64,000 nt of DNA, from contig DASXPG010000106.1 in the NCBI GenBank assembly GCA_036493755.1, positions 11,241 through 75,240 on the forward strand, in the 5' to 3' direction. This DNA is from Gemmatimonadales bacterium. GTDB lineage: Bacteria; Gemmatimonadota; Gemmatimonadetes; Gemmatimonadales; JACORV01. Position numbers and translations under genes: made by a program. Below, in pieces: positions 27,961-58,166 of the stretch. How positions within the stretch are numbered: the stretch's first letter is position 1; each line of letters opens with the position of its first letter. The notes below the pieces were generated by a model, which had not been told where the DNA came from, did not search any database, and saw only the letters and a program-made list of their open reading frames with translations.

Positions 27961-27989
27961 AGCTGTAAGACCTTATCATAGCGGACCTT

Positions 27990-40321: not shown

Positions 40322-40476
40322 GGCGGTTTGCGCGTCGCGGCCAGGCGACAGGTGGGAACCGGCGGCGACGCGCACTAATTGGTAGCGAACAGGCTCGACG
40401 CCGCCCGGATTTGTCGCGATTTTCGCGCTCACCGCCTCCGGCGATGGGGTTCGCTTCTTGCCAATCCATCGTCGGC

Positions 40477-43400
40477 ATGAATCGCTGGCGCTTGGCGGCG
40501 CTCCTCGCCTCGCTCGTGGCCCTGAGCTGTGAACCAGCATTGGCGCCCACAGCGCCTCCCCAACCCGGCTCGCCGCCTCCGGCGCCGCCGCCCCCGCCTC
40601 CCGGCCAACCCCACACCACAGCGACAAGACTCGCATTTGCCGCCCAGCCGCATGGCACGACAGCCGGGACGCGCCTTCCGGTATTCCAGGTGGCCGTTCT
40701 CGACAGCGCCGGCAACGTGGTCAGCAGTGCACAGATGGGAATTTCCCTGACGCTGGGCGCCAATAAGCCCAACGGTTCCCTATCCGGCCGCGTGACCGCG
40801 ACGCCGGTCCTTGGCATCGCCACCTTCGACAGCGTCGTGATCGCGCACGCCGGCAGCGGGTACTCCCTCGCCGCCAATGGCGGCCTGCTGAAGCCCGTAC
40901 TAAGCGACTCGCTGGCGATCCAGCCCGCGGCTCCAGCGAAACTTGTGTTCCAGGCCCAGCCCGCCACGACGGCCGCCGGCGCGGCTCTCGCTCCGGTCCA
41001 GGTCGCCGTGTCCGACGCATTCGACAATCCGACGCCAGCCGCGACCGGCGTTGTCACGCTCGCGATCGGTCGCGGCGCGACGTTGCGCGGCACCGTCAGC
41101 GTGGCGGCATCGGCCGGCATTGCCACTTTCGCAGATCTCCGGATCAACCGGGCCGACAGCGGCTACGTCATCACGGCGACCAGCGGCGCATTGACCGCCG
41201 CGATCAGCGCGCTCTTCGCCGTGACCCCGTTGAGCGGGACCAGGCTCGTCTTCCAATCGTCTCCCACCGGCGGTGCCGCGGGCTATGCCTTCGATTCGCC
41301 CGTCTCCGTCGCGGTGGTCGACAGCTTCAACAATGTTTCGGCCTCCACCGCGCCCATCACCGTCGCCCTCGGCGCCAATCCGTCGGGGGGTACTCTGGGC
41401 GGCACGAAAACCGTGAATGCTCAGCGCGGGGTCGCGAGCTTCACCGACCTTGCCATCGACCGGGCCGGAACCGGATACACCCTGACCGCCGGCGGGAACG
41501 CGCTGGCCAGCGGAACGAGCCCGGCGATTGCCGTGGCGAATCCGGTCACGGTGCGGCAAGGCATTATGGCGGCGGGCCTGTTCACGACCTGCGGCGTCAG
41601 CACCGGCGGACAGACGAGATGCTGGGGAAACGGCACCCATGGCGAGCTCGGCAATGGACGCCTGCTCCGGAGTGCGACCCCGGTGGCGATATCAGGCGGC
41701 CTCAGCTTCGACAGCATCAGCGTCGGTGCGGCCGACGGCTCCTTCGTATGCGGCATTCGCCACGGCGGCGGCGTCTACTGTTGGGGAAATGATGCCTATG
41801 GATTGCTCGCCGACGGCGGCTCGATCAGCCGAGCAACTCCGGCGCCGATCGCCGGCAGCTCGAACTTCGTCGCGGTCAGCGCGGGCGGCGACCATGCGTG
41901 TGCCTTGGGAACCGATGGTCACATGTCGTGCTGGGGCATCATGGGCGACACCCACGACGCTCCCGGACCGGATCCTTCGTCCGCCACGCCGGTCCTGGTC
42001 AGCCCATCGCTCACCTTCCGGGCCCTCAGTGCGGGCGATGAGCACACCTGTGGAATAGAGATTGACGGATCGGTCTTCTGCTTCGATTTCCACTACGGGG
42101 ATTTCAACACCTCGTTCAGCGGCAACTATCGCGCGATCAGCGCCGGGCTGCTCCATACCTGCGCAATAGCCGCCGACAGCACCGCGTGGTGCTGGGGTCC
42201 GACGGCCGCGAATCGGAATGCGCCTGCCGCCGTACCCGGTGGCTACAAGTTCACCGCCATCAGCGCGGGATTTGACTACACCTGCGGCATCACCACGACG
42301 CAGGATGGCGTCTGCTGGGGAACCAACGACTACGGCGAGCTGGGCAACGGCTCAACCGGGGCATCGACGAGTCCCGTGATGGTGAGTGGTGGCCTGAAGT
42401 TCGCCTCGATCACCGCCGGCAAGAGCGGCGACTGCCTGGTCAGCAACAAGTACGTCGCCTGCAACAACACCTGCGCCGTGACGACCGCGGGCCAAGCCTG
42501 GTGCTGGGGTTATAACGGCGAGGGAGAAGTAGGGGACGGCACCAGCCAGATTCGCCTGACGCCCCAGCCGGTAAGCGGCGGCGGCAGTTACTCCCGAATC
42601 GCGACGAATGGACGAACCAGCTGCGCCATTTCTAACAGCGGAGCCGTGTCCTGCTGGGGCGCCAACTGGAATGGCGCGCTCGGCGACGGCGCGGCGCCGT
42701 CGACCACGGTGCCAATAGCGGTGAGCGGCGGCTTTGCGGCGACGCAAGTGAGCGGACTCGGGCCGGTGCAGTGCGCATTGACGAGCGGCGGCACTACGTC
42801 GTGCTGGGGAAGCGGTCCCGCGGGGTTGCTGGGCAATCCTTCGACCGACACGACCAGCTCACCAACGCAGGTCGCAGGCGGCCACAGCTTCGTCACGCTC
42901 AGCGTCGGGGATTACCACGCCTGCGGCATTGCCGCCGACGGATCCGCCTGGTGCTGGGGCCAGAATGAGAGCGGCGAGCTCGGCGACGGCTCGACGACCA
43001 GCAGTGCAACACCGGTGGCGGTCGGCGGCCCCAAATTCTCCGCGATCGCCGTCTCGAGCAGCGGCCCGTTCAGAAACACCTGCGGCCTTGCCGTCAGCGG
43101 CGAAGCGTACTGCTGGGGCGCGAACAACTGGGGCCAGCTCGGCGATGGCACGTTCACGCAGCAATCGCTGCCGGTTCCGGTGCGCGGCGGGCTCCACTTC
43201 GCTTCGCTGAGCGCGGGCAGCAGCACCGCGTGCGCGTTGACCGCGCAGGGCAAGGCGTACTGCTGGGGCATCGGCAATACCACGCCGACGCTGGTCACCG
43301 GCAATCACACCTTCGCGGCGATCAGCGTGTCCGCGACCACCTGCGCGCTGACGCCGACGGGCGCCGCCTGGTGCTGGGGACTCAATGGTCACGGCCAGAT

Positions 43401-43647
43401 TGGCAACGGTACCTCCGATCCGAACGCGACCTACTTCGATCCGACCGCGGTCAGCGGAGGTCTGAAGTTCGAGGCCATCAGCGGTTCAGGGACCCAGACC
43501 TGCGCCGTCACCACGGGCGGCTCGGCATACTGCTGGGGTCTGAACGCATCGGGGCAACTCGGCAACGGCACGACCAACGACGCGCTGGTGCCGACGCCCG
43601 TCAGCAGTGGCAGCTTTGGCGCCCCCGCTCGCGTAATGCGTCGCTGA
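40477..43647 (+). CDS. Large lipoprotein: three ~95-aa Ig-like modules followed by ~13 RCC1/BLIP-II-type beta-propeller repeats
   Basis: MNRWRLAALLASLVALSC. Three repeats of the form LxFxxQPxxTxAG...VAVxDxxxN...ATFxDLxIxxAGxGY. Then recurring CWGxNxxGxLGNG/DG blades (CWGNGTHGELGNG, CWGTNDYGELGNG, CWGANNWGQLGDG, CWGLNASGQLGNG). Confidence 0.85.
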   Translation: MNRWRLAALLASLVALSCEPALAPTAPPQPGSPPPAPPPPPPGQPHTTATRLAFAAQPHGTTAGTRLPVFQVAVLDSAGNVVSSAQMGISLTLGANKPNGSLSGRVTATPVLGIATFDSVVIAHAGSGYSLAANGGLLKPVLSDSLAIQPAAPAKLVFQAQPATTAAGAALAPVQVAVSDAFDNPTPAATGVVTLAIGRGATLRGTVSVAASAGIATFADLRINRADSGYVITATSGALTAAISALFAVTPLSGTRLVFQSSPTGGAAGYAFDSPVSVAVVDSFNNVSASTAPITVALGANPSGGTLGGTKTVNAQRGVASFTDLAIDRAGTGYTLTAGGNALASGTSPAIAVANPVTVRQGIMAAGLFTTCGVSTGGQTRCWGNGTHGELGNGRLLRSATPVAISGGLSFDSISVGAADGSFVCGIRHGGGVYCWGNDAYGLLADGGSISRATPAPIAGSSNFVAVSAGGDHACALGTDGHMSCWGIMGDTHDAPGPDPSSATPVLVSPSLTFRALSAGDEHTCGIEIDGSVFCFDFHYGDFNTSFSGNYRAISAGLLHTCAIAADSTAWCWGPTAANRNAPAAVPGGYKFTAISAGFDYTCGITTTQDGVCWGTNDYGELGNGSTGASTSPVMVSGGLKFASITAGKSGDCLVSNKYVACNNTCAVTTAGQAWCWGYNGEGEVGDGTSQIRLTPQPVSGGGSYSRIATNGRTSCAISNSGAVSCWGANWNGALGDGAAPSTTVPIAVSGGFAATQVSGLGPVQCALTSGGTTSCWGSGPAGLLGNPSTDTTSSPTQVAGGHSFVTLSVGDYHACGIAADGSAWCWGQNESGELGDGSTTSSATPVAVGGPKFSAIAVSSSGPFRNTCGLAVSGEAYCWGANNWGQLGDGTFTQQSLPVPVRGGLHFASLSAGSSTACALTAQGKAYCWGIGNTTPTLVTGNHTFAAISVSATTCALTPTGAAWCWGLNGHGQIGNGTSDPNATYFDPTAVSGGLKFEAISGSGTQTCAVTTGGSAYCWGLNASGQLGNGTTNDALVPTPVSSGSFGAPARVMRR

Positions 43648-43695
43648 TCGGGCACGCGGATGTCGGTGCGGGTGAATCGGATCGATCGGAGAGCA

Positions 43696-43767
43696 TAGCC
43701 CCAACGGGAATCGAACCCGTGTCCCCACCTTGAAAGGGTGGTGTCCTAGCCGCTGGACGATGGGGCC
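43696..43767 (-). tRNA. tRNA-Glu (anticodon UUC)
   Basis: GGCCCCA TC GTCC AGCGGCTA GGAC A CCACC CTTTCAA GGTGG GGAC ACGGG TTCGATT CCCGT TGGGGCT A. Confidence 0.9.
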
Positions 43768-43774
43768 GATTCAG

Positions 43775-43847
43775 TAGCGGTAACGGGATTCGAACCCGTG
43801 TTTCGGCCTTGAGAGGGCCACGTCCTAGGCCTCTAGACGATACCGCC
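43775..43847 (-). tRNA. tRNA-Glu (anticodon CUC)
   Basis: GGCGGTA TC GTCT AGAGGCCTA GGAC G TGGCC CTCTCAA GGCCG AAAC ACGGG TTCGAAT CCCGT TACCGCT A. Confidence 0.9.
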
Positions 43848-43856
43848 ATAAACGGA

Positions 43857-43929
43857 CAGGCCCGGCAGGAATCGAACCTGCAACCCCCGGTTTTGGAGAC
43901 CGGTGCTCTACCAATTGAGCTACGGACCT
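43857..43929 (-). tRNA. tRNA-Trp (anticodon CCA)
   Basis: AGGTCCG TA GCTC AATTGGTA GAGC A CCGGT CTCCAAA ACCGG GGGTT GCAGG TTCGATT CCTGC CGGGCCT G. Confidence 0.9.
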
Positions 43930-43934
43930 CCGAG

Positions 43935-44009
43935 GGTGGCTAACGGGAATTGAACCCGCAACCTCTGGAGCCACAGTCCAGCGCTCTAACCAATTGAGCT
44001 ATAGCCACC
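43935..44009 (-). tRNA. tRNA-His (anticodon GUG) with encoded G-1
   Basis: G GTGGCTA TA GCTC AATTGGTTA GAGC G CTGGA CTGTGGC TCCAG AGGTT GCGGG TTCAATT CCCGT TAGCCAC C. Confidence 0.9.
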
Positions 44010-44067
44010 AGGGCTCCGGGCCCGGCCCTCGCGAGCCCCAAAAGTTAATCCTGCCTGGCCCCCACTC

Positions 44068-44727
44068 TCAACCCCAGAAGCGCTGAGTCAGAAAGCTGGT
44101 CCGGTCGTCCTTGACCGCCCGCCAGTCGCCGTGCACCGCCGTTTCCAGCACGCCGCGCACCGCGTTGGCCAGAAACACCGGCAATCCCTCGATGTCGGGC
44201 CGGGTGAAACGGCCCTCGCGGACCTCGATCTTGTTCTCCTGGGCCAGCTCGATGACCCGCGCCCGCCCGATCCCCGGGAGGATGCCGATGTCGAGCGCCG
44301 GCGTGCAGAGCACCGGTCCCAGCCAGAAAAAAATACTGGTCACGCATCCTTCGGCGAGGACACCGCCCTGCGCCATCAGCAGCGCCTCATCGGCGCGGAA
44401 CGGGACCACGCGCGCCCGCGCGCGATCGAACATCTGGCGATCGGTGACCTTGTGCGGATATGGCTCGTGCCTGGTCCCCGAGAAGACGATCCGCATCGGC
44501 TCGACCGGCGGGGCCGGGCGCGATTCGATGCGCTCGCCCAGCTCATCGAGCATTACGCGCACAATCAAATCGGCGCCATGGGCATGGGCGCGCACCCGCT
44601 CCTCGAGACCCGGCTCGGGCAGCGCCCGCGCCAGCGCCTCACAGGAGCGTCTGAGCCGTGCGATGTGCTGGGAGAGGAACAGCGCCTTCCCCTCGCGGAA
44701 GCGGATCGTCTCGAAAAGTCCACTCAT
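44068..44727 (-). CDS. Aminotransferase class IV fold protein (aminodeoxychorismate lyase-like)
   Basis: MSGLFETIRFREGKALFLSQHIARL, then KVTDR, then EGCVTSIFF...LCTPALDIGILPGIGR...VREGRFT. The pattern resembles PabC/class IV enzymes but the protein is short (219 aa). Confidence 0.65.
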   Translation of the reverse strand: MSGLFETIRFREGKALFLSQHIARLRRSCEALARALPEPGLEERVRAHAHGADLIVRVMLDELGERIESRPAPPVEPMRIVFSGTRHEPYPHKVTDRQMFDRARARVVPFRADEALLMAQGGVLAEGCVTSIFFWLGPVLCTPALDIGILPGIGRARVIELAQENKIEVREGRFTRPDIEGLPVFLANAVRGVLETAVHGDWRAVKDDRTSFLTQRFWG

Positions 44728-44826
44728 CAGAGGTTAGCCTACGCTGAGGCGGCCAAACGCTCAAGCGCCGGGGAGTTGCAGGTCGGCCGTTCAAGGTGAC
44801 ATTTACCGTTCACCTGGGAGGTATCA

Positions 44827-45555
44827 GTGCCGCTCGTTCGTTGTCCGAAGCACGGCCGGGTCTACGATGATGCCAAGGCCGCAGGCTGCTCGGTCTGCAT
44901 GGAAGAGCTGGCCATGCCGCGCGCGCCCGGCGGCCGCGCAAAAGAGCCGGTGGCCGAGGCTCCGCGATCGATGGGTGGCATGATCATCCTGGCGGCGCTG
45001 ATCATCGTCGGCGTTCTGGGCGGCGCGATCTACTGGTACTCATCGACCCACAACGCCGAGACCCGGGCGAGCGCCGCGCGCGACTCGCTGCGCGCCGAGG
45101 CCGCAGGACCGCCGCAGGCCGACACCACCCACCTCGCCCTTCCCGGCGATCTGTCGCCGGTGCGCCGGGCGCGCGCGCTGCGCGGCGAGCTGGAGTCGCT
45201 GCTCCACCACGATCGCGGCGCGATCCTCGGCTTTGCAGCCGGATCGGCCGACACCACCTCGGCCGATCGCACCGCGCAGAAAAAAGCCAAGCAGTACGTG
45301 GCCTTCGCCCATCGCTGGCAGGGCGCGATCGACCGGCTGACCCGCGGCGGCACCGACTTCCGCTATCAGCCCGGCGTGCGCCTCGAGCGGCAGATGGACA
45401 ACGTCACCAACCAGCTTCAGGCCGCGGCCAGCGTGATGCGCGACATGGTGCGGATCACCGAGGTGAAGCCGCGCGCCGAGCGCAGCACCGACGTGCGCGA
45501 TGCCACTGGATACCTGAATTCGGCAGGCTCGGTGTTGTCGGGGCTTCCGAGGTGA
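44827..45555 (+). CDS. Hypothetical membrane-anchored protein with N-terminal CxxH...CxxC zinc-ribbon-like motif
   Basis: GGGAGG precedes GTG 44827. Product starts VRCPKHGRVYDDAKAAGCSVCMEE, then a single TM (MIILAALIIVGVLGGAIYWY), then a ~170-aa helical region. Confidence 0.55.
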   Translation: MPLVRCPKHGRVYDDAKAAGCSVCMEELAMPRAPGGRAKEPVAEAPRSMGGMIILAALIIVGVLGGAIYWYSSTHNAETRASAARDSLRAEAAGPPQADTTHLALPGDLSPVRRARALRGELESLLHHDRGAILGFAAGSADTTSADRTAQKKAKQYVAFAHRWQGAIDRLTRGGTDFRYQPGVRLERQMDNVTNQLQAAASVMRDMVRITEVKPRAERSTDVRDATGYLNSAGSVLSGLPR

Positions 45556-45598
45556 GGCATGCAGACGCGCGGCCGCGCAGCCGCGCGGCGGCGCGGTC

Positions 45599-46081
45599 GT
45601 GACCAATTCCTCGCCCGGCGCGCGGCTGCGCGCCTCGTGGGACCGGCTCTCCCGGCTTCCCGGCGGGCGCTGGCTCTTCAGCAGACTGCTCCGTTTCGTG
45701 AATCCCTACTCGGGCGCCGTTGGCGCACGGGTCGAGGAGCTGCAACCGGGCCATGCGCGGCTCACTCTCACGGACCGGCGCGCGGTCCGCAATCATCTGA
45801 ACTCGGTCCACGCCATCGCGCTGGCGAACATCGCCGAGCTGGCGAGCGGGCTGGCGATGCTCTCGGCACTCCCCGATACCGTGCGCGGCATTCCGACCGG
45901 CATTTCCATCCAGTACCTGAAGAAGGCGCGCGGCGTGCTCACGGCCGAAGCGCGGGTCGTCATCCCCACGGTCACCGGCGACATGAATTTCGAGGTGACC
46001 TCCACGGTGAAGAACGCCGCCGGCGAGGAGGTCGCCCACGCCACGGTCAGCTGGAAGCTGGGGCTGATCCCCGGGCGATGA
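45599..46081 (+). CDS. Hotdog-fold protein (DUF4442/PaaI-like thioesterase)
   Basis: NPYSGAVGARVEELQPGHARLTLTDRRAVRNHLNSVHAIALANIAELASG resembles the DUF4442/PaaI pattern. Its stop overlaps the next start (ATGA). Confidence 0.6.
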   Translation: MTNSSPGARLRASWDRLSRLPGGRWLFSRLLRFVNPYSGAVGARVEELQPGHARLTLTDRRAVRNHLNSVHAIALANIAELASGLAMLSALPDTVRGIPTGISIQYLKKARGVLTAEARVVIPTVTGDMNFEVTSTVKNAAGEEVAHATVSWKLGLIPGR

Positions 46082-47097
46082 CCGATTCGGCGCACGACGC
46101 ACGACGGACGACGCACGATGCACCGCTTCAAACGCCGCTGACCCGCGACGCCGGTTGCGACATCCCCATCATCGGCGGCGCGATGTACCCCTGCAGCAAT
46201 CCCGAGCTGGTCGCCGCGGTTTCGGCCGCGGGCGCCATCGGCGTCGTCCAACCGGTCTCGCTGACCTACGTCCACGGCCACGACTACCGGGAAGGACTGC
46301 GGCTCATCCGCCGGCTCGCTCCCGGCAAGCCGATCGGCATGAACGCGCTGATCGAGAAGTCTTCGAAGCTCTACCTGGAGCGGATGACGACGTGGATCGA
46401 CGTCGCGCTCGAGGAAGGGGTACGCTTCTTCATCACCTCGTTAGGCAACCCGCGCTGGGTGGTGGACCGGGTGGCGGCGGCCGGCGGCAAGGTCTACCAC
46501 GACGTCACCGAACGGAAATGGGCGCTCAAGGCGAGGGACGGCGGCGTACACGGCCTGATCTGCGTGAACAGCCGTGCCGGCGGACACGCCGGCGCGCTGA
46601 CACCCGAGGCCTTGATCGCCGAATGCGGCGACCTGGGATTGCCCCTGGTCTGCGCCGGCGGCGTCGGCGACGAGAGCGATTTCGTCCGCGCCATGCGGCT
46701 CGGCTATGCCGGGGTGCAGATCGGCACCCGCTTCATCGCCACCACCGAGTGCAACTCGCGGGCCGACTACAAGCAGGCGATCCTGAACGCCGGCGAGGAC
46801 GACATCGTCCTCACCGAGCGGGTGACCGGGGTGCCGATCGCGGTGATCCGGACGCCGTACATCGAGCGCATCGGTACCAGCATCGGGCCCATCGCGCGCC
46901 GCCTCTTTCGCGGCCGCCGCACCCGCCACTGGATGCGAACCTTCTACGCGCTCCGCTCGTTGCGAAAGATGAAGACCGATTCGGTGACCGGCTCCGGCAC
47001 CGGCGAGTACTGGCAGGCGGGAAAAAGCGTCCACGGCATCACATCGATCGAGCCCGCGGGGGATATCATTCGCCGATTTGCTGCCGCCGCGTCCTGA
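46078..47097 (+). CDS. Nitronate monooxygenase (NMO / FabK-like FMN oxidoreductase) family protein
   Basis: IPIIGGAMYPCSNPELVAAVSAAGAIGV, VNSRAGGHAG and LVCAGGVGD...GYAGVQIGTRF. Confidence 0.85.
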   Translation: MTDSAHDARRTTHDAPLQTPLTRDAGCDIPIIGGAMYPCSNPELVAAVSAAGAIGVVQPVSLTYVHGHDYREGLRLIRRLAPGKPIGMNALIEKSSKLYLERMTTWIDVALEEGVRFFITSLGNPRWVVDRVAAAGGKVYHDVTERKWALKARDGGVHGLICVNSRAGGHAGALTPEALIAECGDLGLPLVCAGGVGDESDFVRAMRLGYAGVQIGTRFIATTECNSRADYKQAILNAGEDDIVLTERVTGVPIAVIRTPYIERIGTSIGPIARRLFRGRRTRHWMRTFYALRSLRKMKTDSVTGSGTGEYWQAGKSVHGITSIEPAGDIIRRFAAAAS

Positions 47098-47120
47098 AGG
47101 ACGCTACATTCAGCCCCGAC

Positions 47121-48314
47121 ATGACGGGACTTCGGCAGACCCCATTCCACCCCCGCACATCGGCCCTGATGGAAGGCGCAAACTGGCGCCGCTGGGCCGG
47201 ATACACCGTGGCGAGCTCCTACGAGCTGCTGCACGACCGCGAGTATCACGCGATCCGCAGCTCGGCCGCGCTGCTCGACGTGACGCCCCTCTACAAGTAC
47301 CTGGTGACCGGCAAGGACGCCGCGCGGCTGGTCGATCGCGTTATCGTCCGCGACGCGCTGCACGCCAGGGTCGGCCAGGTGATGTACACCTGCTGGTGCG
47401 ACAGCGCCGGCAAAGTCATCGACGACGGCACCGTGTCGCGGCTCGGCGACGAGACGTTCCGAATCACCTCGGCGGATCCCTCGTTGCGCTGGTTCGCCCT
47501 CAACGCGGCCGGCCTCCATGCGAAGATCGAAGACGTCACGGAATCCACCGCCGCGCTGGCGCTGCAGGGGCCCAATGCCCGCGCCATTCTCCAGCAGCTC
47601 ACCGGCGCCGACCTCGCGCACCTCAAGTACTTCCGCGTCGTCTCGACGACGCTGCGCGACATGCCGGTCCAGATATCGCGCACCGGCTACACCGGTGACC
47701 TCGGCTACGAGATCTGGCTGCACGCCCACGACGCCCTCGCGATCTGGGACGCGCTGATCGAGGCGGGAACGCCGTACGGCATCGTCCCCTGCGGAATGCT
47801 GGGCCTCGACATGGCCCGCATCGAGGCGGGGCTCATGCTGCTCGAAGTCGACTACGTCTCGGCGCACCGCGCCCTGATCGAGGGCCAGAAGTCGTCGCCC
47901 TACGAGCTGAACCTCGGCTGGGCGGTGGACCTCAAGAAGGAATGGTTCGTCGGCAAGGATGCCCTGGCCCTCGAGGCGGCGCGCGGACCGGCCTGGCGTT
48001 TCATCGGCATCGAGGTCGATTGGGAAAACCTCGAGCGGTTGTACGCCGAGGTGAAGCTTCCGCCGAGACTGCCGGCGCAGGCGTGGCGGGTCAGCGTGCC
48101 GTTGTACGTCGAGGGACGGCAGGTCGGCTACGCGACCAGCGGCTGCTGGTCGCCGCTGCTCAAGAAGTACATCGCGCTGGGGCACGTCGAAGCGGCCTAC
48201 GGCAATCCCGGCTCTCGGCTGGCGATGGAAGTCACCGTCGAGCACCGCCGCAAGCAGGCCGCCGCGACGGTGGTGCCCACACCCTTCTTCAATCCCGACC
48301 GGAAGCGCGCCTGA
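47121..48314 (+). CDS. GcvT-family aminomethyltransferase-like (folate-binding) protein
   Basis: TPFHPRT, EYHAIRSSAALLDVTPLYKYLVTG, ALALQGPNA, ISRTGYTGDLGYEIW and GLDMARIEAGL. Confidence 0.85.
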   Translation: MTGLRQTPFHPRTSALMEGANWRRWAGYTVASSYELLHDREYHAIRSSAALLDVTPLYKYLVTGKDAARLVDRVIVRDALHARVGQVMYTCWCDSAGKVIDDGTVSRLGDETFRITSADPSLRWFALNAAGLHAKIEDVTESTAALALQGPNARAILQQLTGADLAHLKYFRVVSTTLRDMPVQISRTGYTGDLGYEIWLHAHDALAIWDALIEAGTPYGIVPCGMLGLDMARIEAGLMLLEVDYVSAHRALIEGQKSSPYELNLGWAVDLKKEWFVGKDALALEAARGPAWRFIGIEVDWENLERLYAEVKLPPRLPAQAWRVSVPLYVEGRQVGYATSGCWSPLLKKYIALGHVEAAYGNPGSRLAMEVTVEHRRKQAAATVVPTPFFNPDRKRA

Positions 48315-49897
48315 TGGCCGCCAATCGCTACGACGCGATCGTCATCGGCGGCGGCCACAACGGACTGATCGCCGCCGCCTACCTGGCGCGCGCCGGCCGG
48401 AAGGTCGTCGTCCTCGAGCGGCGCGAGCGGGTGGGCGGCGCGGCGGTGACCGAGGAAATCTTCCCCGGCTTCAAGTTTTCGATGTTCTCGTACGTGGTCA
48501 GCCTGCTGCGCCCCGAGATCATCCGCGACCTGCGGCTTCCCGAGCACGGCCTCCAGATTCTCCCGCTCGAGAGCACGCTGACGCCCATGGAAAACGGCGA
48601 CTACTTCGCCGCCTGGGCCGATCACGACCAGACCCGCCGCGAGCTGCTGCGGCATTCGGCGCTCGACGCCGAAGCGTACGACGAGTACGGCCGGCTGATG
48701 TACCACATGGCCCACGCGGTGAAGCCGATCCTCGGCATGGTGCCTCCCGACCCGGCGTCGCTGCGGCCCCGCGACCTCAAGGGGATGCTCGCCGTCGGCA
48801 ATCACTTCCGCTCGTTAGGCGCCGAGCAGTTCCACGCCATGTTCAAGCTGATGACCATGAGCTCGGCGGATTTCCTCGACGAGTGGTTCGAGACCGACGT
48901 CCTCAAGGCCACCAAGTCGGCGAGCGGGATCATCGGCACCTTCCTGGGCCCGCGCTCGCCGGGAACGGCCTACGTCCTCCTCCATCATTACATGGGCGAG
49001 CTGGACGGCGTGTTCCGCGCCTGGGGCTTCCAGAAGGGCGGCACCGGCGGAATCTCGGAAGCGATCGCCGCCTCGGCTCGATCGCTCGGCGTTGCAATCA
49101 GGTGCGGCCAGACGGTGCAGAAGGTGCGCGAGAAGGATGGCCGGGTCCGCGGCGTGGTCCTCGAGAATGGCGACGAGATCGACGCGAACATCGTGCTGAC
49201 GAGTCTCGATCCCCGGCGCAGCTTCCTCGAGCTGGTGGACCGGAAGGCGCTCCCCGACGAGTTCGTGGCGGACATCAGCCGCTTCAAGTTCCGCGGCTCC
49301 TCGGGAAAGGTGAACCTCGCGTTAGGCGCCCTCCCCGATTTCACCTGCATGCCCGGCTTCGGCCCGCACCTGCGCGGCGCCATGTCGATATCGCCCAGCA
49401 TGGACTACGTCGAGCGGGCCTACGACGACGCCAAGTACGGCGAGTTCTCGAAGCGCCCGTACATGGACATCGTGATCCCCTCGCTCATCGATCCCGGGAT
49501 GGCGCCTCCCGGCAAACACGTCATGTCGGTCTTCGTGCAGTACGCGCCGTACAACCTGAACGGCGGCTGGACCGACGCGAAGCGCGAGGCATTCGGCGAC
49601 GCCGTGATCGGCGCCATCGAGCGCTTCGCGCCCAACATCCGCTCCTGCATCGAGCACCGGCAGGTGCTGACGCCGCTCGACATCGAGCGCATCACCGGGC
49701 TGTCCGAAGGCAACATCTTCCAGGGCGAGCTGGCGCTCCACCAGCTCTTCTTTCTCCGGCCCGCTCCGGGCTGGGCGCGCTTCCGCACGCCGATCAGGAA
49801 TTACTACCAGTGCGGTTCGGGGACGCACCCCGGCGGCGGCATCATGGGCGCTTCCGGACGGCTCGGCGCGATGGCGGTGCTGGAGGACCACGCGTGA
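48314..49897 (+). CDS. Phytoene-desaturase-family NAD(P)/FAD-dependent oxidoreductase (CrtI-like), copy 1
   Basis: YDAIVIGGGHNGLIAAAYLARAGRKVVVLERRERVGGAA (dinucleotide fold) and C-terminal CGSGTHPGGGIMGASG. Confidence 0.85.
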   Translation: MAANRYDAIVIGGGHNGLIAAAYLARAGRKVVVLERRERVGGAAVTEEIFPGFKFSMFSYVVSLLRPEIIRDLRLPEHGLQILPLESTLTPMENGDYFAAWADHDQTRRELLRHSALDAEAYDEYGRLMYHMAHAVKPILGMVPPDPASLRPRDLKGMLAVGNHFRSLGAEQFHAMFKLMTMSSADFLDEWFETDVLKATKSASGIIGTFLGPRSPGTAYVLLHHYMGELDGVFRAWGFQKGGTGGISEAIAASARSLGVAIRCGQTVQKVREKDGRVRGVVLENGDEIDANIVLTSLDPRRSFLELVDRKALPDEFVADISRFKFRGSSGKVNLALGALPDFTCMPGFGPHLRGAMSISPSMDYVERAYDDAKYGEFSKRPYMDIVIPSLIDPGMAPPGKHVMSVFVQYAPYNLNGGWTDAKREAFGDAVIGAIERFAPNIRSCIEHRQVLTPLDIERITGLSEGNIFQGELALHQLFFLRPAPGWARFRTPIRNYYQCGSGTHPGGGIMGASGRLGAMAVLEDHA

Positions 49898-51318
49898 GCC
49901 GCTCCGTGGTGGTGATCGGCGCCGGGACCAACGGTCTGACCGCGGCGCAGATACTCGCGACATCGGGGCGGCAGGTCATCGTGCTCGACCAGAAGCAGCC
50001 CGCCGACGTCGACTTCGACGCCGGTTGGGTGCCACCGAGCGTCCGCGCCGCGCTCAACATTCAGCCGGAGGCCGAGGAGCAGGGTTCCTGGCTGGTGATG
50101 CCGATGGAGGGCGGGCGCTTCGAGCTCTTTGCCGACATCGCCCGCTCGGCCGAATCGATCCGGAGGCTCAGCCCGCGCGATGCGTCGCGCTGGCCGGAAT
50201 TCTGCACCCGCATGCGGCGCCTGGCTGGAGTGCTCGAGACGCTCTATCAGCAGAACGCCCCCGACGTCGAGACCACCGATCCCGGAGAGCTGATGCACCT
50301 CGCCCTCCTCGGACTCAGGGTCCGCGGGCTGGGCCGGCAGACCGTGATCGACCTGCTGCGCATTCTGCCGATGCCGGTCGCCGAGCTGCTCGACGAGTGG
50401 TTCGAGAGCGAGCTGCTCAAGGCGGCGGTCGGCTCGACCGGCGTCATGGATCTGTGCCAGGGGCCGCGTTCGGCGGGAACGGCGTTCGTGATGCTGCACC
50501 ATCACGTGGGCCGGCCGGCCGGTGTCTTTCGGCCGCTTCGCACCAGCCTGCGCTCGACATTGTCGAAGCGGACCAACGTCGAGATCCGCCACGACGCCGC
50601 GATGCACCTCGAGGTCGCCGGCGAGCGTATCCGCGCCGTGACCCTCGAGAGCGGCGACACCATCGAGACCGACTGCCTCGTCTCCAGCGCTGACCCGCGC
50701 CGCACCATGCTCGACCTCCTCGATCCGGGCTGGCTCGACCCCGAATTCATGCGCGCGGTGCACAACATCAAAATGAAGGGTGTCGCCGGGACGGTGACCC
50801 TCGCCCTGAGCTGCGAGGCGCCGTTCAGGCAGATGAGCCTGGCGCCGTCGCTGACCCACATCGAGCGCGCCTACGACGATGTGAAATACGGACGACCATC
50901 AGCGCAGCCGTGGCTGGAATTGAGGAACAGCGGGCAAAAGATCGAGGTGCAGGTCCAATACCTGCCGCAGGTCCCGCGCGAGGGCGCGTGGGACGAGGCC
51001 GGGAAGCGCTCGTTAGGCAACGACGTCGCCCGGCGGGTGGTCGACGCGGCGCCCGAGCTGAAGGATGCCATCACCGGCATCCGCGTCATGACCCCGCTCG
51101 ATCTGGACGCCCACGGCGGTCTCACCGGCGGTCACCGGTACCAGGGCGACCTGACCCTCGACCAGATCCTCTTCATGCGCCCGGTGGCGGGCTGGAGCCG
51201 GTATCGCACTCCGATCGGCGGGCTCTGGCTCTGCGGCTCGGGAACCCATCCCGGCGGCGGCGTCGCCGGCGCGTCAGGACTGCTCGCGGCGCGCGAGATT
51301 CTGCGGGACGCCCGGTGA
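49894..51318 (+). CDS. Phytoene-desaturase-family FAD-dependent oxidoreductase (CrtI-like), copy 2
   Basis: VVVIGAGTNGLTAAQILATSGRQVIVLD and C-terminal CGSGTHPGGGVAGASG. GTGA overlap with copy 1. Confidence 0.8.
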   Translation: MSRSVVVIGAGTNGLTAAQILATSGRQVIVLDQKQPADVDFDAGWVPPSVRAALNIQPEAEEQGSWLVMPMEGGRFELFADIARSAESIRRLSPRDASRWPEFCTRMRRLAGVLETLYQQNAPDVETTDPGELMHLALLGLRVRGLGRQTVIDLLRILPMPVAELLDEWFESELLKAAVGSTGVMDLCQGPRSAGTAFVMLHHHVGRPAGVFRPLRTSLRSTLSKRTNVEIRHDAAMHLEVAGERIRAVTLESGDTIETDCLVSSADPRRTMLDLLDPGWLDPEFMRAVHNIKMKGVAGTVTLALSCEAPFRQMSLAPSLTHIERAYDDVKYGRPSAQPWLELRNSGQKIEVQVQYLPQVPREGAWDEAGKRSLGNDVARRVVDAAPELKDAITGIRVMTPLDLDAHGGLTGGHRYQGDLTLDQILFMRPVAGWSRYRTPIGGLWLCGSGTHPGGGVAGASGLLAAREILRDAR

Positions 51319-52418
51319 CAGCGTTCCAGAAAACGGCCGAGAGTTACCGGCCGGGCGCGCGAACGATGGAAGGGCGCTACTACACGTCGCCCGACATCTT
51401 CGCCCAGGAGCGGGAGAAGATCTTCGCCCGCCGCTGGATCTGTGTCGGGCGCGAATCGCAGGTCGCCGTGACGGGCGCCTACATCGTGGCAGAGATTGCG
51501 GGCGAGAGCATCATCGTGGTGCGGGACAAGCCGGGCATCCTGCACGCGTTCTACAATGTCTGCCGGCATCGCGGTACCAGGCTCTGCGAAGCGGCGCAGG
51601 GAAGCTTCGGCGGCTCGATCCAGTGTCCCTATCACGCCTGGACCTACGGCCTCGACGGGCGCCTGATCGGCGCCCCGCACATGAACGAAGTCGAATCCTT
51701 CGACAAGGCCGACTATCCGCTGCACGCCGTCGCCGTTGCGATGTGGGAAGGGTTCGTCTTCATCAACCTCGCGGCCCGGCCCGAGCCGTTCGACCTGGCA
51801 TTCGCGCCCGTCACCGGCCTATTCGAGCGCTATGGGTTGGCTCGGCTGCGCGTAGTGCGGCGGATCGAATACGAGGTGAAAGCCAACTGGAAACTGATCC
51901 TTCAGAACTACAACGAGTGCCTGCACTGCCCGACGATCCATCCCGAGCTCTCCACCACGTTGCCCTATACCAGCGGCGCCAACGATCTCACCGACGGCCC
52001 CTTCCTCGGCGGCTACATGGAAATCAAGGCGCCTAACGAAAGCGCAACCATGAGCGGCAGGATGTGCGCGATACCGCTCAGTGGAGCGAGTGGAGCGAGA
52101 GCGTACTACTACGCGCTGTTCCCGACCATGATGCTGAGCCTGCATCCAGACTACGCAGTGTATTACACGGTCTGGCCGAAGTTGCCCGACGCGAGCCGCG
52201 TGGTCTGCGAGTGGATGGTGCATCCGGACGCCCCATCGGCCCCGGGGTACAACATCGCCGATGCCGAAGAGTTCTGGGACGTCACCAATCGGCAGGACTG
52301 GCACATCTGTGAGCAGAGCCATGCGGGCATCAGCTCCCGCGCCTACACTCCCGGACCCTACTCTCCTCGCGAGAGCATCCCCGCCGCCTGGGACCGGGAG
52401 TACCTCAAGAGCCTCTAA
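51315..52418 (+). CDS. Rieske [2Fe-2S] non-heme-iron oxygenase alpha subunit
   Basis: Rieske ligands CRHRG...CPYHAW. Mononuclear iron motif NYNECLHCPTIHP (H-x4-H). GTGA overlap with the previous gene. Confidence 0.85.
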   Translation: MTAFQKTAESYRPGARTMEGRYYTSPDIFAQEREKIFARRWICVGRESQVAVTGAYIVAEIAGESIIVVRDKPGILHAFYNVCRHRGTRLCEAAQGSFGGSIQCPYHAWTYGLDGRLIGAPHMNEVESFDKADYPLHAVAVAMWEGFVFINLAARPEPFDLAFAPVTGLFERYGLARLRVVRRIEYEVKANWKLILQNYNECLHCPTIHPELSTTLPYTSGANDLTDGPFLGGYMEIKAPNESATMSGRMCAIPLSGASGARAYYYALFPTMMLSLHPDYAVYYTVWPKLPDASRVVCEWMVHPDAPSAPGYNIADAEEFWDVTNRQDWHICEQSHAGISSRAYTPGPYSPRESIPAAWDREYLKSL

Positions 52419-52494
52419 CTGACGGGCCCTTCAGGACGTGCATAGCCGAGCGCGTCCTTCAGGACGCATCTCGCAGCGACCTATCGCATCTTCT

Positions 52495-52523
52495 TTGACC
52501 TCTCCTGCATCCCGCAATATGTT
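52495..52523 (+). promoter_or_regulatory. Candidate sigma70-type promoter for the formate dehydrogenase operon
   Basis: TTGACC (52495-52500), a 17-nt spacer, TATGTT (52518-52523), about 38 nt upstream of the ATG. The RBS gagggag is at 52549-52555. Confidence 0.4.
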
Positions 52524-52561
52524 CTGAAGTGTAGTAATGGCATCCACTTGAGGGAGCGCAC

Positions 52562-54493
52562 ATGCGCGGCAAGAACGAACGCGGCTACGTCCGGCTCGAA
52601 ACGCCGCTCGTCCGGGAGAAGGGCGTTCTGCGCCCCGCTTCCTGGGAGAGCGCACTCGACCGGGCGGCGGAGGGCTTTGCCCATATCCGCGAGACCCGGG
52701 GCGGCGACGCCATCGGGATCTTCAGCTGCTCGAAGTCGACGAACGAGATGAACTTCCTCGCGGGGAAACTGGCTCGCCAGGCGTTCGGCTCGCATAACGT
52801 CGACAGCTGCAACCGGACCTGACACGCTCCTAGCGTCGTCGGTCTGGCGACAGCGTTTGGCGCGGGCGGGGGCACCACCTCGTACCGCGAGATGGAAGAG
52901 ACGGATGTGATTTTCCTCTGGGGCGCGAACCCCAGGGAGAATCATCCGATCATCTACCATCACATCCTGAAGGGGATTCACCACGGCGCGAAACTCTACG
53001 CGGTGGATCCTCGGCGGACGCCTTCGGCCCAGTGGGCCGATGTGTGGATGGGTCTCAACGTCGGCAGCGACATCGCGCTCTCGAATGCGATGGCGCGGGT
53101 CATGATCCATGAAGGCCTGGTGCACGAACATTTCGTCGCCCACGCGACGACCGGTTTTGACGCGTATCGGACGTCGGTGGAACCCTGGACCCTCGACAAG
53201 GCCGAGCAGGTCACGGGCGTCCCGGCCGACGTGATCCGTGAAGCGGCGATCACGTATGCGAAGGCGAAGAAGGCGATCATCTGCTGGACCCTCGGAATCA
53301 CGGAGCACCACAACGCCGTCGACAATGTTCTGGCACTCATCAACCTCTCCCTCCTCACCGGCCACGTCGGACACTATGGCTCGGGGCTCAGCCCGCTGCG
53401 CGGACAGAACAACGTCCAGGGCGGCGGCGACATGGGCGCGATTCCCAACAAGCTCGTCGGCTTCCAGGACCCGCTCGATCCCGCCATCAAATCGCGCTTC
53501 GAGAAGGCGTGGGGCGTGCAACTTCCGAACAAGCTCGGCTGGACGATCACCGACATGTTCCACGCCATGGAGCGCGGCGACATGACCGGACTCTTCGTGA
53601 TCGGCGAAAATCCGGCGCAGTCGGAAGCGGACCAGCACCACACCCAGGCGATGCTCGAAGGCCTGGAGCACATGGTGGTACAGGACATTTTCCTGACCCG
53701 GACCGCGCAACTCGCCCACGTCGTTCTCCCTTCGACGGCGAGCTGGTGCGAGAGCGACGGCACGGTGACCAACAGCGAGCGCCGGGTCCAGCGGGTGCGC
53801 GCCGCGCTCCAGCCACCGGGCGACGCGCGCGACGAGCTGTGGATTCTGTCGGAAATGGCGAAGCGCCTCGGCATCGACTGGGGCAAACCCACGGCCGAGA
53901 GCGTCTGGAACGAAGTGCGCACCATGGCGCCGGAAATGTTCGGCGGGATGAGCTATCCGCGCCTCGAGAAACTCGGCGGCATCCAGTGGCCCTGCCCGGA
54001 CGAATCGCATCCCGGCTCGCTGCTGCTCCACGACCGGCTCTGGGCCGAGCCGCGGGGCGGCCCGCCGGCACCGTTCAGCGTCGTGGTCTACGAGCCGCCG
54101 GTCGAGATGCCCGACGCCGAGTATCCCTTCCAGCTCACCACCGGGCGCCGCCTCGATTCGTACAACACCGGGGTGCAGACGGCGGGCTACGCCTCGCCAC
54201 TTCGGCGCGCGGAAACGGTCGACATGTCGCCCGAAGATGTCGATCGACTCGGCCTCGAGGAGGGCGACAGCGTGGAGATCGCGTCCCGGCGCGGCTGCGT
54301 CGTCGCCCCGGTGCACGTGGAACCCAATCTCAGGCCCGGCCTCGTCTTCATGACGCTGCACAACCAGGACGACGTGCGCGTCAACCTGCTCACCATCGAC
54401 GTCACCGATCCCAAGTCGGGCACCGCGGAGTTCAAGGCCTGCGCCGTGCGCATCGAGCCGGTGCGCAAGCCCGCCGCGGCCGCCGGCGACTGA
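52562..54493 (+). CDS. fdhA: Formate dehydrogenase catalytic (molybdopterin) subunit lacking the N-terminal Fe-S domains; in-frame UGA (52820-52822) read as selenocysteine
   Basis: ORFs 52562-52822 and 52892-54493 share one frame, interrupted only by TGA. Across it the translation is NVDSCNRT-U-HAPSVVGLATAFGAGGGTTS, the FdhF active-site motif (VDCCARV-U-HGPSVAGL). The downstream molybdopterin and dinucleotide-binding domains are intact. Confidence 0.85.
52823..52855 (+). promoter_or_regulatory. SECIS-like recoding hairpin
   Basis: gtcgtc (52835-52840) pairs with ggcgac (52846-52851) around the loop GGTCT. The GGTCTG starts 18 nt after the UGA, the same spacing as in E. coli fdhF (UGA-N18-GGUCUG). 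Confidence 0.6.
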
Positions 54494-54506
54494 AGCAAGG
54501 GAGCTC

Positions 54507-56377
<1,871 letters not shown>

Positions 56378-56381
<4 letters not shown>

Positions 56382-57322
56382 GCGAAGGACCGCGCAACGA
56401 GCGCGTCGAAATCAGCGTGGACGGCGAGAACGTCACGGTACCGAAGGGCGGCACCATTCTCGACGCCTGCCGGCAGCTGGGGCGCGAGATCCCGACCCTC
56501 TGCTACCTCGAGACGCTGCACCCGGTCAACGCCTGCCGGGTTTGCGTCGTCGAGCTGGAAGGCTCGCGGGTGCTGGTCCCCTCCTGCTCGCGCATCGCGA
56601 CACCCGGCATGAAGGTGAAAACCGACTCGCCGCGGGTGAAGCTCAGCCGCAAGATGGTGCTGGAATTCCTGGATTCGTCGGTTGACCTGTCCACCGCGCC
56701 TAACGTCGAGGGCTGGCTGGCCGAGTACGGTTGCGACAGCGAGCGCTACGGCCCCGAAGCCCAGCCGGCCACGGCCGGCGAGCGTGACGAGGCGCCGGCC
56801 GGCCACCATCACAAGCCGGATCCCGCCGTCGCCGCGACCGTGCACCAGCCGGTCAAGGTCGACAACGACCTCTACGTGCGCGACTACTCCAAGTGCATTC
56901 TCTGCTACAAGTGCGTCGAGGCCTGCGGGACCGACTACCAGAACACCTTCGCCATCGCCGTCGCGGGTCGCGGATTCGACGCGCGAATCTCGACCGAAAT
57001 GGCCGTCCCCCTCCCCGATTCGGCGTGCGTCTACTGCGGCAACTGCATCGCCGTCTGTCCCACCGGCGCGCTGATGTTCAAGACCGAGCACGATCGTCGC
57101 GCCGAGGAGACCTGGGACGAAGCGAAGCAGCACGTCACCGACACCATCTGCCCCTACTGCGGCGTGGGCTGCACGCTCCAGCTCCGGGTGCAGGAAAACC
57201 AGGTCGTCCGGGTCACCTCGCCGCTCGACCACTCCATCACCCGTGGAAACCTCTGCATCAAGGGACGATTCGGCTGGCGCTTCGTCGAGAATCGGAGCCG
57301 GCAGCGCGATGTCGACGACTGA
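56378..57322 (+). CDS. NuoG-like Fe-S subunit: 2Fe-2S, two 4Fe-4S ferredoxin motifs, and the Fe4S4 cap normally fused to the molybdopterin domain
   Basis: TLCYLE...NACRVCVVE...PSC (2Fe-2S), CILCYKCVEAC and CVYCGNCIAVCP (ferredoxin-type). It ends ICPYCGVGCTLQLRV...GNLCIKGRFGWRFV, then stops. ATGA overlap with the NuoEF gene. Confidence 0.85.
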
Positions 57323-58166
57323 CGAGCCGCCACCGGAGCTGCAGCCCGATCATCCGCTGAGGGGACTCGGCTACCGCGATCCGGTACGCGGCAGGCCGGT
57401 GACGCTGCTCGACGGGAACGCGCGCCATATCAACGAAGCGGCCGTCGTCGAAGAAGTGCCGGTCGCGATGATCTACAATTCCCAGCCCCATGCCGTGATG
57501 ATGGCGACGCCGGCCGACTTCGAGGATTTCGCGGTCGGGTTTTCGCTGTCGGAAGGAATCGTCGCGTCGGCGAAGGAAATCTCGAAGCTCGAGGTGCTGC
57601 GCTACGCCCAGGGCGTCGAAGTGCAGCTCACGATTCCCGATGCGGCGCTGGCGCGGCTCAAGGATCGCGGGCGCGCGCTGATCGGCCGGGTGGGATGCGG
57701 ACTCTGCGGCGTGCAGACCATCGAAGAGGCGCTGCGGCAGCCCAGGCCGGTCGCGCCGGGCGCGAAGATCCGGGTCGATGCCCTCTGGCGCGCGGAGCGG
57801 GAATTGCCCGCACTCCAGAAGCTCAACCAGGATACGGCATCGCTGCACGCGGCGGCATGGGCCAACGATGACGGCCTTCCCGAGATCGTGCGCGAGGACG
57901 TAGGACGTCACAACGCGCTGGACAAAGTGATCGGTGCGCTGGCCCGCACCGGGAGAAATCCCGCCGATGGCTTCGTGGTGATAACCAGCCGGGCGAGTTA
58001 CGAGCTCGTACAGAAAGCCGCGGCGGTCGGAATCAGGCTGCTGGCCGCGGTGTCACGGCCCACCGGGCTGGCCATCGGTCTCGCCGAAACCAGCGGCCTG
58101 ACCCTGGTGGCCCTGCTCCGCGGAAAGACCGCGAGCATTTACGCCCATGGCGAGAGGTTGCAATGA
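57309..58166 (+). CDS. fdhD: Formate dehydrogenase accessory sulfurtransferase FdhD
   Basis: EVPVAMIYNSQPHAVMMATPADFEDFAVGFSLSEGI, GCGLCG, GRHNALDK and SRASYELVQKAA. Confidence 0.9.
   Translation: MSTTDEPPPELQPDHPLRGLGYRDPVRGRPVTLLDGNARHINEAAVVEEVPVAMIYNSQPHAVMMATPADFEDFAVGFSLSEGIVASAKEISKLEVLRYAQGVEVQLTIPDAALARLKDRGRALIGRVGCGLCGVQTIEEALRQPRPVAPGAKIRVDALWRAERELPALQKLNQDTASLHAAAWANDDGLPEIVREDVGRHNALDKVIGALARTGRNPADGFVVITSRASYELVQKAAAVGIRLLAAVSRPTGLAIGLAETSGLTLVALLRGKTASIYAHGERLQ

Follow-up and report, generated by a model that had tools for sequence, protein, structure and literature searches.

A stretch of 64,000 nucleotides from a Gemmatimonadales bacterium (assembly GCA_036493755.1, contig DASXPG010000106.1; hereafter the window) carries a row of six genes for a hotdog-fold protein, an NMO-like enzyme, a GcvT-like protein, two flavoproteins and a Rieske oxygenase, which raises the question which of these proteins act together and in what kind of reaction. 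The original prediction took all six genes for one translationally coupled operon and likened it to a disassembled oxidative N-demethylase. In the present analysis the conserved functional unit proved to be smaller. It consists of the GcvT-like gene (g3, 47121-48314) and the genes for flavoproteins A (g4, 48314-49897) and B (g5, 49894-51318), and is extended in Gemmatimonadota by the Rieske gene (g6, 51315-52418). Our favoured reading, held with moderate confidence, is that g3 to g6 (47121-52418) encode a multi-component, folate-coupled oxidative N-demethylase with a new type of flavoprotein. The window has a G+C content of about 67%, and the closest relatives of its genes are found in metagenome-assembled genomes of Gemmatimonadota. 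It carries genes identical to those on the public Joint Genome Institute (JGI) soil-metagenome contig Ga0376682_0000258, which appears in our surveys as locus L006.

The extent of the unit was assessed in two surveys of related loci. A genome survey with one genome per species was anchored on flavoprotein B, with all window proteins mapped onto the best 80 loci, and a metagenome survey, also comprising the best 80 loci, was anchored on the Rieske protein. The counts thus cover close and moderately distant relatives; about 150 related loci were examined in all. Flavoprotein B gave at least 599 matched stretches and at least 591 confirmed relatives, and two protein searches yielded at least 8000 candidates each. 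The gene for A lies directly 5' of that for B in 63 of 65 loci, and a GcvT-like gene precedes the pair in 55 of 58, so that this block of three genes, hereafter the triad, is co-conserved well outside the genome in which it was first noticed. It is present in Gemmatimonadota, Vicinamibacteria, Burkholderiales, Chloroflexota and Gammaproteobacteria. Identity across the loci is 65-86% for A, 57-79% for the GcvT-like protein and 37-57% for B.

The Rieske gene follows B in 27 of 38 Gemmatimonadota loci and in none of the 26 loci outside this phylum. In the reverse, Rieske-anchored scan, all homologues of g6 with at least 63% identity and a readable upstream flank lie directly behind GcvT-A-B. Co-conservation of the Rieske gene thus holds for its close homologues, which are always attached to the triad, and is at the same time lineage-specific. 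The idea that all six genes form one conserved functional unit did not survive. An NMO gene stands alongside the triad in only two of the 47 loci with enough flank, the hotdog gene, apart from its presence on the identical contig L006, is found with the core in L012 and L017 alone, and in L012 a gene for an IclR regulator (6498-7223) intervenes between NMO and GcvT; both proteins were rejected as pathway members on these grounds. Because of the genome survey and the reverse scan, g3 to g5, with g6 in Gemmatimonadota, were taken as the functional unit.

All six open reading frames (ORFs) were found on the plus strand where they had been predicted, those of the hotdog (g1) and NMO-like (g2) proteins at 45599-46081 and 46078-47097, and the six domain calls agree with Pfam and NCBIfam (DUF4442 hotdog, NMO, GCV_T, two Amino_oxidase/CrtI-type proteins and Rieske). 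The junctions can be read directly in the sequence as ATGA at 46078-46081, TGATG at 48312-48316 and GTGA at both 49894-49897 and 51315-51318, with the expected gap of 23 nucleotides (47098-47120) between the NMO and GcvT genes. On L006, the JGI gene caller set later starts for GcvT (47169), flavoprotein B (49906) and Rieske (51366), which, if right, abolish two of the overlaps. The longer forms are favoured here because alignments with homologues (tblastn, phmmer) extend to residues 1-6 and because the overlaps recur in the gene calls of L001, L003, L005 and L171, which have 1 nucleotide between GcvT and A and 4 nucleotides at each of the A/B and B/Rieske junctions, as in the window. Since identical overlaps occur in independent loci, the translational coupling is conserved and not due to chance. 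Exact-sequence look-ups of g6 and g3 gave no match, because public gene calls start at other codons. A promoter and terminator scan of 43600-52700 scored no better than shuffled sequence.

Flavoprotein A (527 amino acids), the proposed catalytic amine dehydrogenase or oxidase, is assigned by its sequence to the PYROXD2 family of FAD oxidoreductases. It aligns with mouse PYROXD2 over the full length with 41% identity (409 bits, E = 2e-141), whereas the match to CrtI (4dgk) reaches 60 bits and 19% identity, and CrtD likewise 19%. A PYROXD2 sequence served as the query in this check; it was 98% identical to named primate PYROXD2 entries, and the mouse database entry was used for the comparison. 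The A subunit of Alphaproteobacteria is 42% identical to PYROXD2. Common to g4 and PYROXD2 are an N-terminal block, YDA(I/V)VIG(G/A)GHNGL...GGAAVTEEI.PGFKFS, and a C-terminal GSG.HPGGG. An AlphaFold2 model of g4 (mean local confidence, pLDDT, 85) is nearest in fold to CrtD (4rep, TM score 0.77-0.83), followed by the amine oxidases NicA2 and MAO. With CrtI, CrtD and CrtO, g4 thus shares the overall fold and the Pfam Amino_oxidase family. It differs from them in its 19% identity, in scores below the model cut-offs (crtI_fam 112 bits against 238, CrtO ketolase 286 against 1000), in the lack of carotenoid genes in the loci examined and in having a folate enzyme as its conserved partner; g4 was rejected as a CrtI or CrtO enzyme. 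Of the earlier description of both flavoproteins as CrtI-like, the domain type stands, whereas A is better placed in the PYROXD2 family and B is a degenerate paralogue.

Flavoprotein B (474 amino acids) shares 36-41% identity with A-type proteins and 27% with PYROXD2 (27-28% over the B subunits compared). In Gemmatimonadota, three segments common to A and PYROXD2 are missing from B, namely RVGGAAVTEEIFPGFKF, AWGFQKGGTG and IPSLIDPGMAP, while the N-terminal GxGxxG and the C-terminal GSGTHPGGG are retained. Two of the missing segments, RVGGAAVTEE... and ...KGGTG, contact FAD in this fold. Judged from these motifs and from its low identity across loci, B is a fast-evolving, degenerate paralogue of A, and we infer that it is a non-catalytic, probably structural, partner.

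The third member of the triad, g3 (397 amino acids), is proposed to be a folate-dependent subunit that captures one-carbon (C1) units. Its GCV_T domain is full-length (PF01571, profile positions 8-255 of 255, 210 bits) and is accompanied by the C-terminal barrel (PF08669, 52 bits). Residues 409-784 of the trimethylamine N-oxide (TMAO) demethylase Tdm (9q5a) are the best match in the PDB with 187 bits, followed by T proteins and the folate domains of dimethylglycine oxidase (DMGO), dimethylglycine dehydrogenase (DMGDH) and SoxA. The best NCBIfam model is likewise that of TMAO demethylase (NF053776), matched over its C-terminal half only (positions 386-761; 278 bits against a cut-off of 1100). 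The segment GKVIDDGTV aligns with GGMVDDGTL in Tdm, GGTVDDLLI in 1yx2 and GGIIDDLVV in the T protein of T. maritima (1woo), and the aspartate of this GG-x-x-DD motif is the catalytic one of T protein. Tdm, whose GcvT-like C-terminal domain captures formaldehyde, is the nearest sequence to g3; g3 differs in lacking the DUF1989-type N-terminal catalytic domain and in having half the length. Identification of g3 as Tdm itself was rejected, both on the score and because 397 residues stand against a two-domain protein of about 760. A glycine-cleavage T protein was rejected as well, with TIGR00528 at 169 bits against 236, PRK00389 at 232 against 300, and the T-protein motif DVSHMG replaced by DVTPLY; no gcvH or gcvP was found beside g3 among the window ORFs scanned. 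As far as sequence can tell, the notion of a disassembled oxidative N-demethylase gains support from the retained aspartate motif and from the C1-capturing half of Tdm being the nearest relative.

The closest functional analogues are DMGO, DMGDH, sarcosine dehydrogenase (SARDH) and heterotetrameric sarcosine oxidase, in which oxidation of an N-methyl C-N bond by FAD is joined to GcvT-fold capture of the product as 5,10-methylene-tetrahydrofolate. Their folate domains match g3 with 112 bits (DMGO, 1pj5), 84-90 bits (DMGDH) and 81 bits (SoxA). In these systems the flavoprotein is a DAO-family member in fusion with the GcvT domain, or else SoxB, whereas here it is of the CrtI/PYROXD2 type, has its own gene and is paired with a degenerate paralogue. 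The match of g4 to DAO is limited to the Rossmann start (residues 7-43). A score of 160 was obtained with the soxA model, whose cut-off is 1164. The cluster was thus rejected as a DAO-type sarcosine oxidase or DMGDH, the g4 fold being of the other type, while the functional analogy stays.

The Rieske protein g6 (367 amino acids; PF00355 72 bits, PF00848 149 bits) is the alpha subunit of a non-heme iron oxygenase in the clade of Stc2, GbcA and CntA, as had been suggested from its iron motif. Its best PDB matches are Stc2 (3vca) with 185 bits, 3n0q with 180 and CntA with 154, against at most 107 bits for aromatic-ring oxygenases. The Rieske ligands CRHRG...CPYHAW and the mononuclear-iron motif NYNECLHCPTIHP (N-x2-E-C-x-H-C-x3-H-P) align with those of Stc2, 3n0q and CntA. 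The likeness to Stc2 (stachydrine), GbcA (glycine betaine) and CntA (carnitine) lies in the CxH/CxxH Rieske ligands, the iron motif and a C-terminal TN..D..I.E. The differences are the absence of an adjoining reductase of the GbcB, CntB or Stc3-4 type and the length, 367 against 391-435 residues, with about 30 residues absent between two aligned blocks; compared with Stc2, 3n0q and CntA, g6 is shorter by about 30-45 residues. GbcA (NF058607) is the best NCBIfam model with 239 bits against a cut-off of 670, and with this score and no adjacent GbcB-type reductase, g6 was rejected as a GbcA ortholog.

A second, paralogous group of Rieske genes was seen in about 29 metagenome loci (L128-L163, e.g. 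L140:727-3319). These proteins are 59-62% identical to g6, and their genes never stand beside the triad. In about 24 of the 29 loci the gene lies directly behind a transporter of the major facilitator superfamily (MFS; Sugar_tr/MFS_1), and genes for an amidohydrolase and an S9 peptidase are frequently close by; transporter and oxygenase may form a stand-alone pair for uptake and demethylation.

Do the PYROXD2-like and GcvT-like proteins belong together beyond these close relatives? A search of a plasmid collection with g4 gave homologues of 50-53% identity in cultured Alphaproteobacteria, the only cultured carriers found there being Fuscovulum, Rhizobium sp. SL42, Shinella, Ensifer adhaerens and Parasedimentitalea. 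In Fuscovulum, Rhizobium, Shinella and Parasedimentitalea the gene order is A-B-GcvT. The alphaproteobacterial clusters are flanked by a TetR regulator, ATP-binding cassette (ABC) transporters of the polyamine and polar-amino-acid types and class III aminotransferases. They also have between one and three genes for Rieske alpha subunits that belong to the clade of g6 and are 28-34% identical to it. Some of these loci also carry a gene for a 680-residue NADH:flavin oxidoreductase or a BKACE protein. On the Shinella sumterensis plasmid NZ_CP132306 (L174, 3023-12161), a lone PYROXD2-like gene is followed by gcvT, and the pair is flanked by genes for an ADP-forming acyl-coenzyme A (CoA) ligase, enoyl-CoA hydratase, 3-hydroxyacyl-CoA dehydrogenase, class II aldolase and BKACE. 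The arrangement resembles a CoA pathway in the style of those for carnitine or butyrobetaine, with N-demethylation as its last step. In Burkholderiales, the triad stands behind a transporter in the order substrate-binding protein, permease, permease, ATPase, or merely behind glmS. The pairing of a PYROXD2-like flavoprotein with GcvT thus recurs in three gene orders (GcvT-A-B, A-B-GcvT and single gene-gcvT), and this recurrence argues more strongly than any other observation for a joint action of the two.

If g3 to g6 do constitute an oxidative N-demethylase, the reaction might proceed in three steps. The Rieske protein would hydroxylate one N-methyl group of a quaternary or tertiary amine, with release of formaldehyde; where present, it would take off the first methyl group of an amine that the flavoprotein cannot oxidise. 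For electrons it would depend on a reductase whose gene lies elsewhere, as none was found among the window ORFs scanned. Flavoprotein A, in complex with the degenerate B, would then oxidise the remaining N-methyl C-N bond or bonds to the iminium, with O2, a quinone or an ETF-like carrier as possible electron acceptors. Finally, g3 would trap the one-carbon unit on tetrahydrofolate as 5,10-methylene-tetrahydrofolate. The scheme is proposed by analogy with DMGO, DMGDH, SARDH, SoxABDG and Tdm. Systems in which an N-demethylating flavoprotein works with a folate module of the GcvT type, joined by a Rieske demethylase of quaternary amines, are of a known kind. New are the flavoprotein of the CrtI/PYROXD2 family in place of a DAO-type enzyme, its separate gene with a degenerate paralogue and the free-standing GcvT subunit. 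In the papers available, PYROXD2 was nowhere mentioned alongside GcvT or aminomethyltransferase, and a search for the combination of GcvT, phytoene dehydrogenase, Rieske and betaine genes returned nothing relevant.

Several points weigh against this assignment. The evidence for the function of g3 to g6 is computational throughout: domain identities, motifs, PYROXD2 homology, synteny and overlaps were computed, and from them we deduced the A/B complex and the reaction, as well as the sequence of its steps, the acceptor of the electrons and the substrate. No FNR-type reductase or small ferredoxin was detected in the cluster or among the ORFs scanned with Pfam across the 64-kb window, in agreement with the original prediction; the only Fe-S or flavin proteins in that search were those of a formate-dehydrogenase-like cluster downstream. 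The absence of the Rieske gene from the 26 loci outside Gemmatimonadota means that it is not obligatory for the triad. Because B lacks two motifs that contact FAD, the stoichiometry and its role are uncertain. Among solved structures, g4 is nearest in fold to the carotenoid desaturases, whose reactions take place at C-C bonds. For PYROXD2, encoded by a single eukaryotic gene, neither a B subunit nor a GcvT partner has been described, and the support from human metabolite genetics, given below, is correlative. Around many triads, moreover, neither a transporter nor a regulator gene nor a catabolic gene downstream is seen, and such bare surroundings say little about the substrate.

Where there is informative context, it points to an amine-bearing, possibly basic amino-acid-like substrate without fixing it, because amine and amino-acid transporters, omega-aminotransferases and a decarboxylase are encoded nearby in relatives. 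The last of these, a group II pyridoxal-phosphate decarboxylase (Pyridoxal_deC, 89 bits), lies directly 3' of the Rieske gene in 12 Gemmatimonadales loci (among them L020, L022 and L024; e.g. L024:12509-13762). It is absent in the window, where the formate-dehydrogenase-like cluster takes its place.

Among amines of this kind, N6-methylated lysines (tri-, di- and monomethyl-lysine, converted to lysine) are tentatively put first, by analogy with the metabolite genetics of human PYROXD2. For plasma N6-methyllysine, a missense single-nucleotide polymorphism in PYROXD2 accounts for about 50% of the variance, and for N6,N6-dimethyllysine for 48% (PMC8109053); it is also tied to trimethyl-lysine, N-methylpipecolate and N2-acetyl derivatives (PMC8109053; PMC13352909). 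Urinary trimethylamine is inversely correlated with PYROXD2 expression (PMC3169529). These associations with methyl-lysines and trimethylamine would be anticipated for a family of enzymes that take off N-methyl groups. PYROXD2 is mitochondrial, its biochemical activity is undefined and its loss leads to a severe infantile disorder (PMC8777681). A flavoenzyme named epsilon-alkyllysinase, which converts free N6-methyl-lysine to lysine and formaldehyde, was purified from rat kidney in 1963-64, as cited in PMC3936616. Betaines, dimethylglycine, sarcosine and methylated polyamines are possible alternative substrates. More speculatively, GcvT with PYROXD2-like A and B could be the bacterial prototype of a class, so far unrecognised, of folate-coupled demethylases that act on free N6-methylated lysines and related N-methyl amines, mammalian PYROXD2 could be the long-unassigned epsilon-alkyllysinase, and the Gemmatimonadota Rieske protein could extend the range to the trimethyl form. 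If true, this equation of PYROXD2 with epsilon-alkyllysinase would explain the very strong metabolite quantitative trait loci (mQTLs) for methyl-lysines and for trimethylamine and dimethylamine.

Could all six genes instead form one pathway that handles glycine betaine or some other of the classical osmolyte betaines? The Rieske protein would then convert betaine to dimethylglycine, the flavoproteins and GcvT would lead on through sarcosine to glycine, and the hotdog and NMO proteins would perform further steps. GbcA as the best NCBIfam model of g6, the resemblance of g3 to the folate domains of DMGO, DMGDH and SoxA, the arrangement of six genes on one strand with short junctions and the formate-dehydrogenase-like cluster directly downstream, which fits C1 disposal, would all suit such a route. 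However, g6 stays far under the GbcA cut-off and is no more distant from Stc2 than from any other member, and the rarity of hotdog and NMO genes near the triad, together with the regulator gene that separates them from it in L012, argues against a six-gene pathway. No BCCT- or OpuA-type transporter was seen beside the triad in the loci examined, those present being ABC transporters of the polyamine/sugar and polar-amino-acid types. The metabolites associated with PYROXD2 are methyl-lysines, trimethylamine and dimethylamine, and not dimethylglycine or sarcosine. We therefore consider such a six-gene betaine pathway unlikely.

Another reading keeps the amine and gives up the methyl group: A and B would oxidise or dehydrogenate a secondary amine of a non-methyl kind (for instance a polyamine, opine or N-alkyl amino acid), an aminomethyl or glycine-derived fragment would go to GcvT, and the Rieske gene would be an unrelated addition in Gemmatimonadota. 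The polyamine-type transporters and class III aminotransferases around the alphaproteobacterial clusters would suit it, as would the relation of the g4 fold to putrescine, monoamine and nicotine oxidases and the restriction of the Rieske gene to Gemmatimonadota in the genome survey. To our knowledge, however, and going by the names of PDB entries, the characterised GcvT-domain partners of flavoproteins (DMGO, DMGDH, SARDH and SoxA) all capture C1 units derived from N-methyl groups. Rieske genes of the same clade do recur in alphaproteobacterial clusters, the close homologues of g6 with a readable upstream flank are all attached to the triad, and the compounds associated with PYROXD2 are N-methyl compounds, which makes this reading very unlikely.

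Highly improbable, finally, is a role of A and B as CrtI/CrtO-type desaturases, ketolases or isomerases of a carotenoid, isoprenoid or lipid, with an accessory, folate-independent GcvT protein (YgfZ/Iba57-like) and a Rieske protein hydroxylating the same substrate: it would agree with the best curated models of g4 (CrtO ketolase, crtI_fam), with CrtD as the best structural match, with the public annotation "phytoene dehydrogenase-like" and with the existence of GcvT-family members in non-folate roles (PMC9551070), but these models score far under their cut-offs, g4 is much nearer to PYROXD2 than to CrtI or CrtD, no crtB, crtE, crtY or other isoprenoid gene stands beside the triad in the loci examined, g3 keeps the aspartate motif and has C1-capturing enzymes as its nearest relatives, g6 falls into the N-demethylase clade and not into the sterol or aromatic clades, and the neighbours in Alphaproteobacteria are amine transporters and aminotransferases.

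With N-demethylation as the preferred function, the cluster would represent a widespread and so far unrecognised means for soil bacteria to regain carbon, nitrogen and C1 units out of methylated amines. With at least 591 relatives in a collection of one genome per species, the module is very common. The genome context also provides independent evidence on the chemistry of PYROXD2, the function of which has been open since an mQTL study of 2011, and the cluster offers a testable function for the whole PYROXD2 family.

The genes upstream of the triad form a separate, lineage-specific unit that abuts the cluster. The hotdog protein g1 (160 amino acids, PF14539, 136 bits) and the NMO/FabK-like FMN oxidoreductase g2 (339 amino acids) share a start/stop overlap of 4 nucleotides (ATGA) and are translationally coupled to each other. 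For g2, the generic NMO model was passed (PF03060, 116 bits against 28), whereas FabK, the enoyl-acyl-carrier-protein reductase II, was rejected (TIGR03151, 122 against a cut-off of 453). On the same strand, a protein of 242 amino acids without an assigned family (g0, 44827-45555) ends 43 nucleotides 5' of g1. It gave no Pfam or NCBIfam match; a Cys-rich motif (CPKH...CSVC) stands at its N terminus and a single transmembrane helix is predicted, and its homologues lie 5' of g1 and g2 in L012 (58% identity) and L017 (52%).

Just past the stop codon of the Rieske gene, an 11-nucleotide direct repeat, CCTTCAGGACG, occurs in two copies 28 nucleotides apart (52428-52466); read in the sequence, no T-rich terminator tail follows it. 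A weak promoter-like site (52495-52523) precedes the formate dehydrogenase gene. The formate-dehydrogenase-like cluster (52562-58166, plus strand) comprises, in this order, a molybdopterin catalytic subunit (52562-54493), a NuoE/NuoF fusion (54507-56381), an Fe4S4 ORF (56150-57322) and FdhD (57243-58166). The catalytic subunit has an in-frame TGA at 52820-52822, in the context SCNRT-[TGA]-HAPSVVGL, which is probably a selenocysteine codon. It is without the N-terminal Fe4S4 domain, which is found on the separate ORF 56150-57322 (Fer2_4, 4Fe-4S and Molybdop_Fe4S4), a layout that looks like an unusual split or permuted FdhA. This cluster could dispose of C1 units from the demethylase.

Further upstream, a class IV aminotransferase gene (109 bits; 44068-44727, minus strand) is divergent from g0. 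A gene for a protein of 1078 amino acids with multiple RCC1 repeats (40411-43647, plus strand; 368 bits to the RCC1-like domain model) also lies upstream; it is unrelated to the cluster, as is a LigD-Ku pair for non-homologous end joining at 25318-27972 (minus strand) and 27969-28868 (plus strand).

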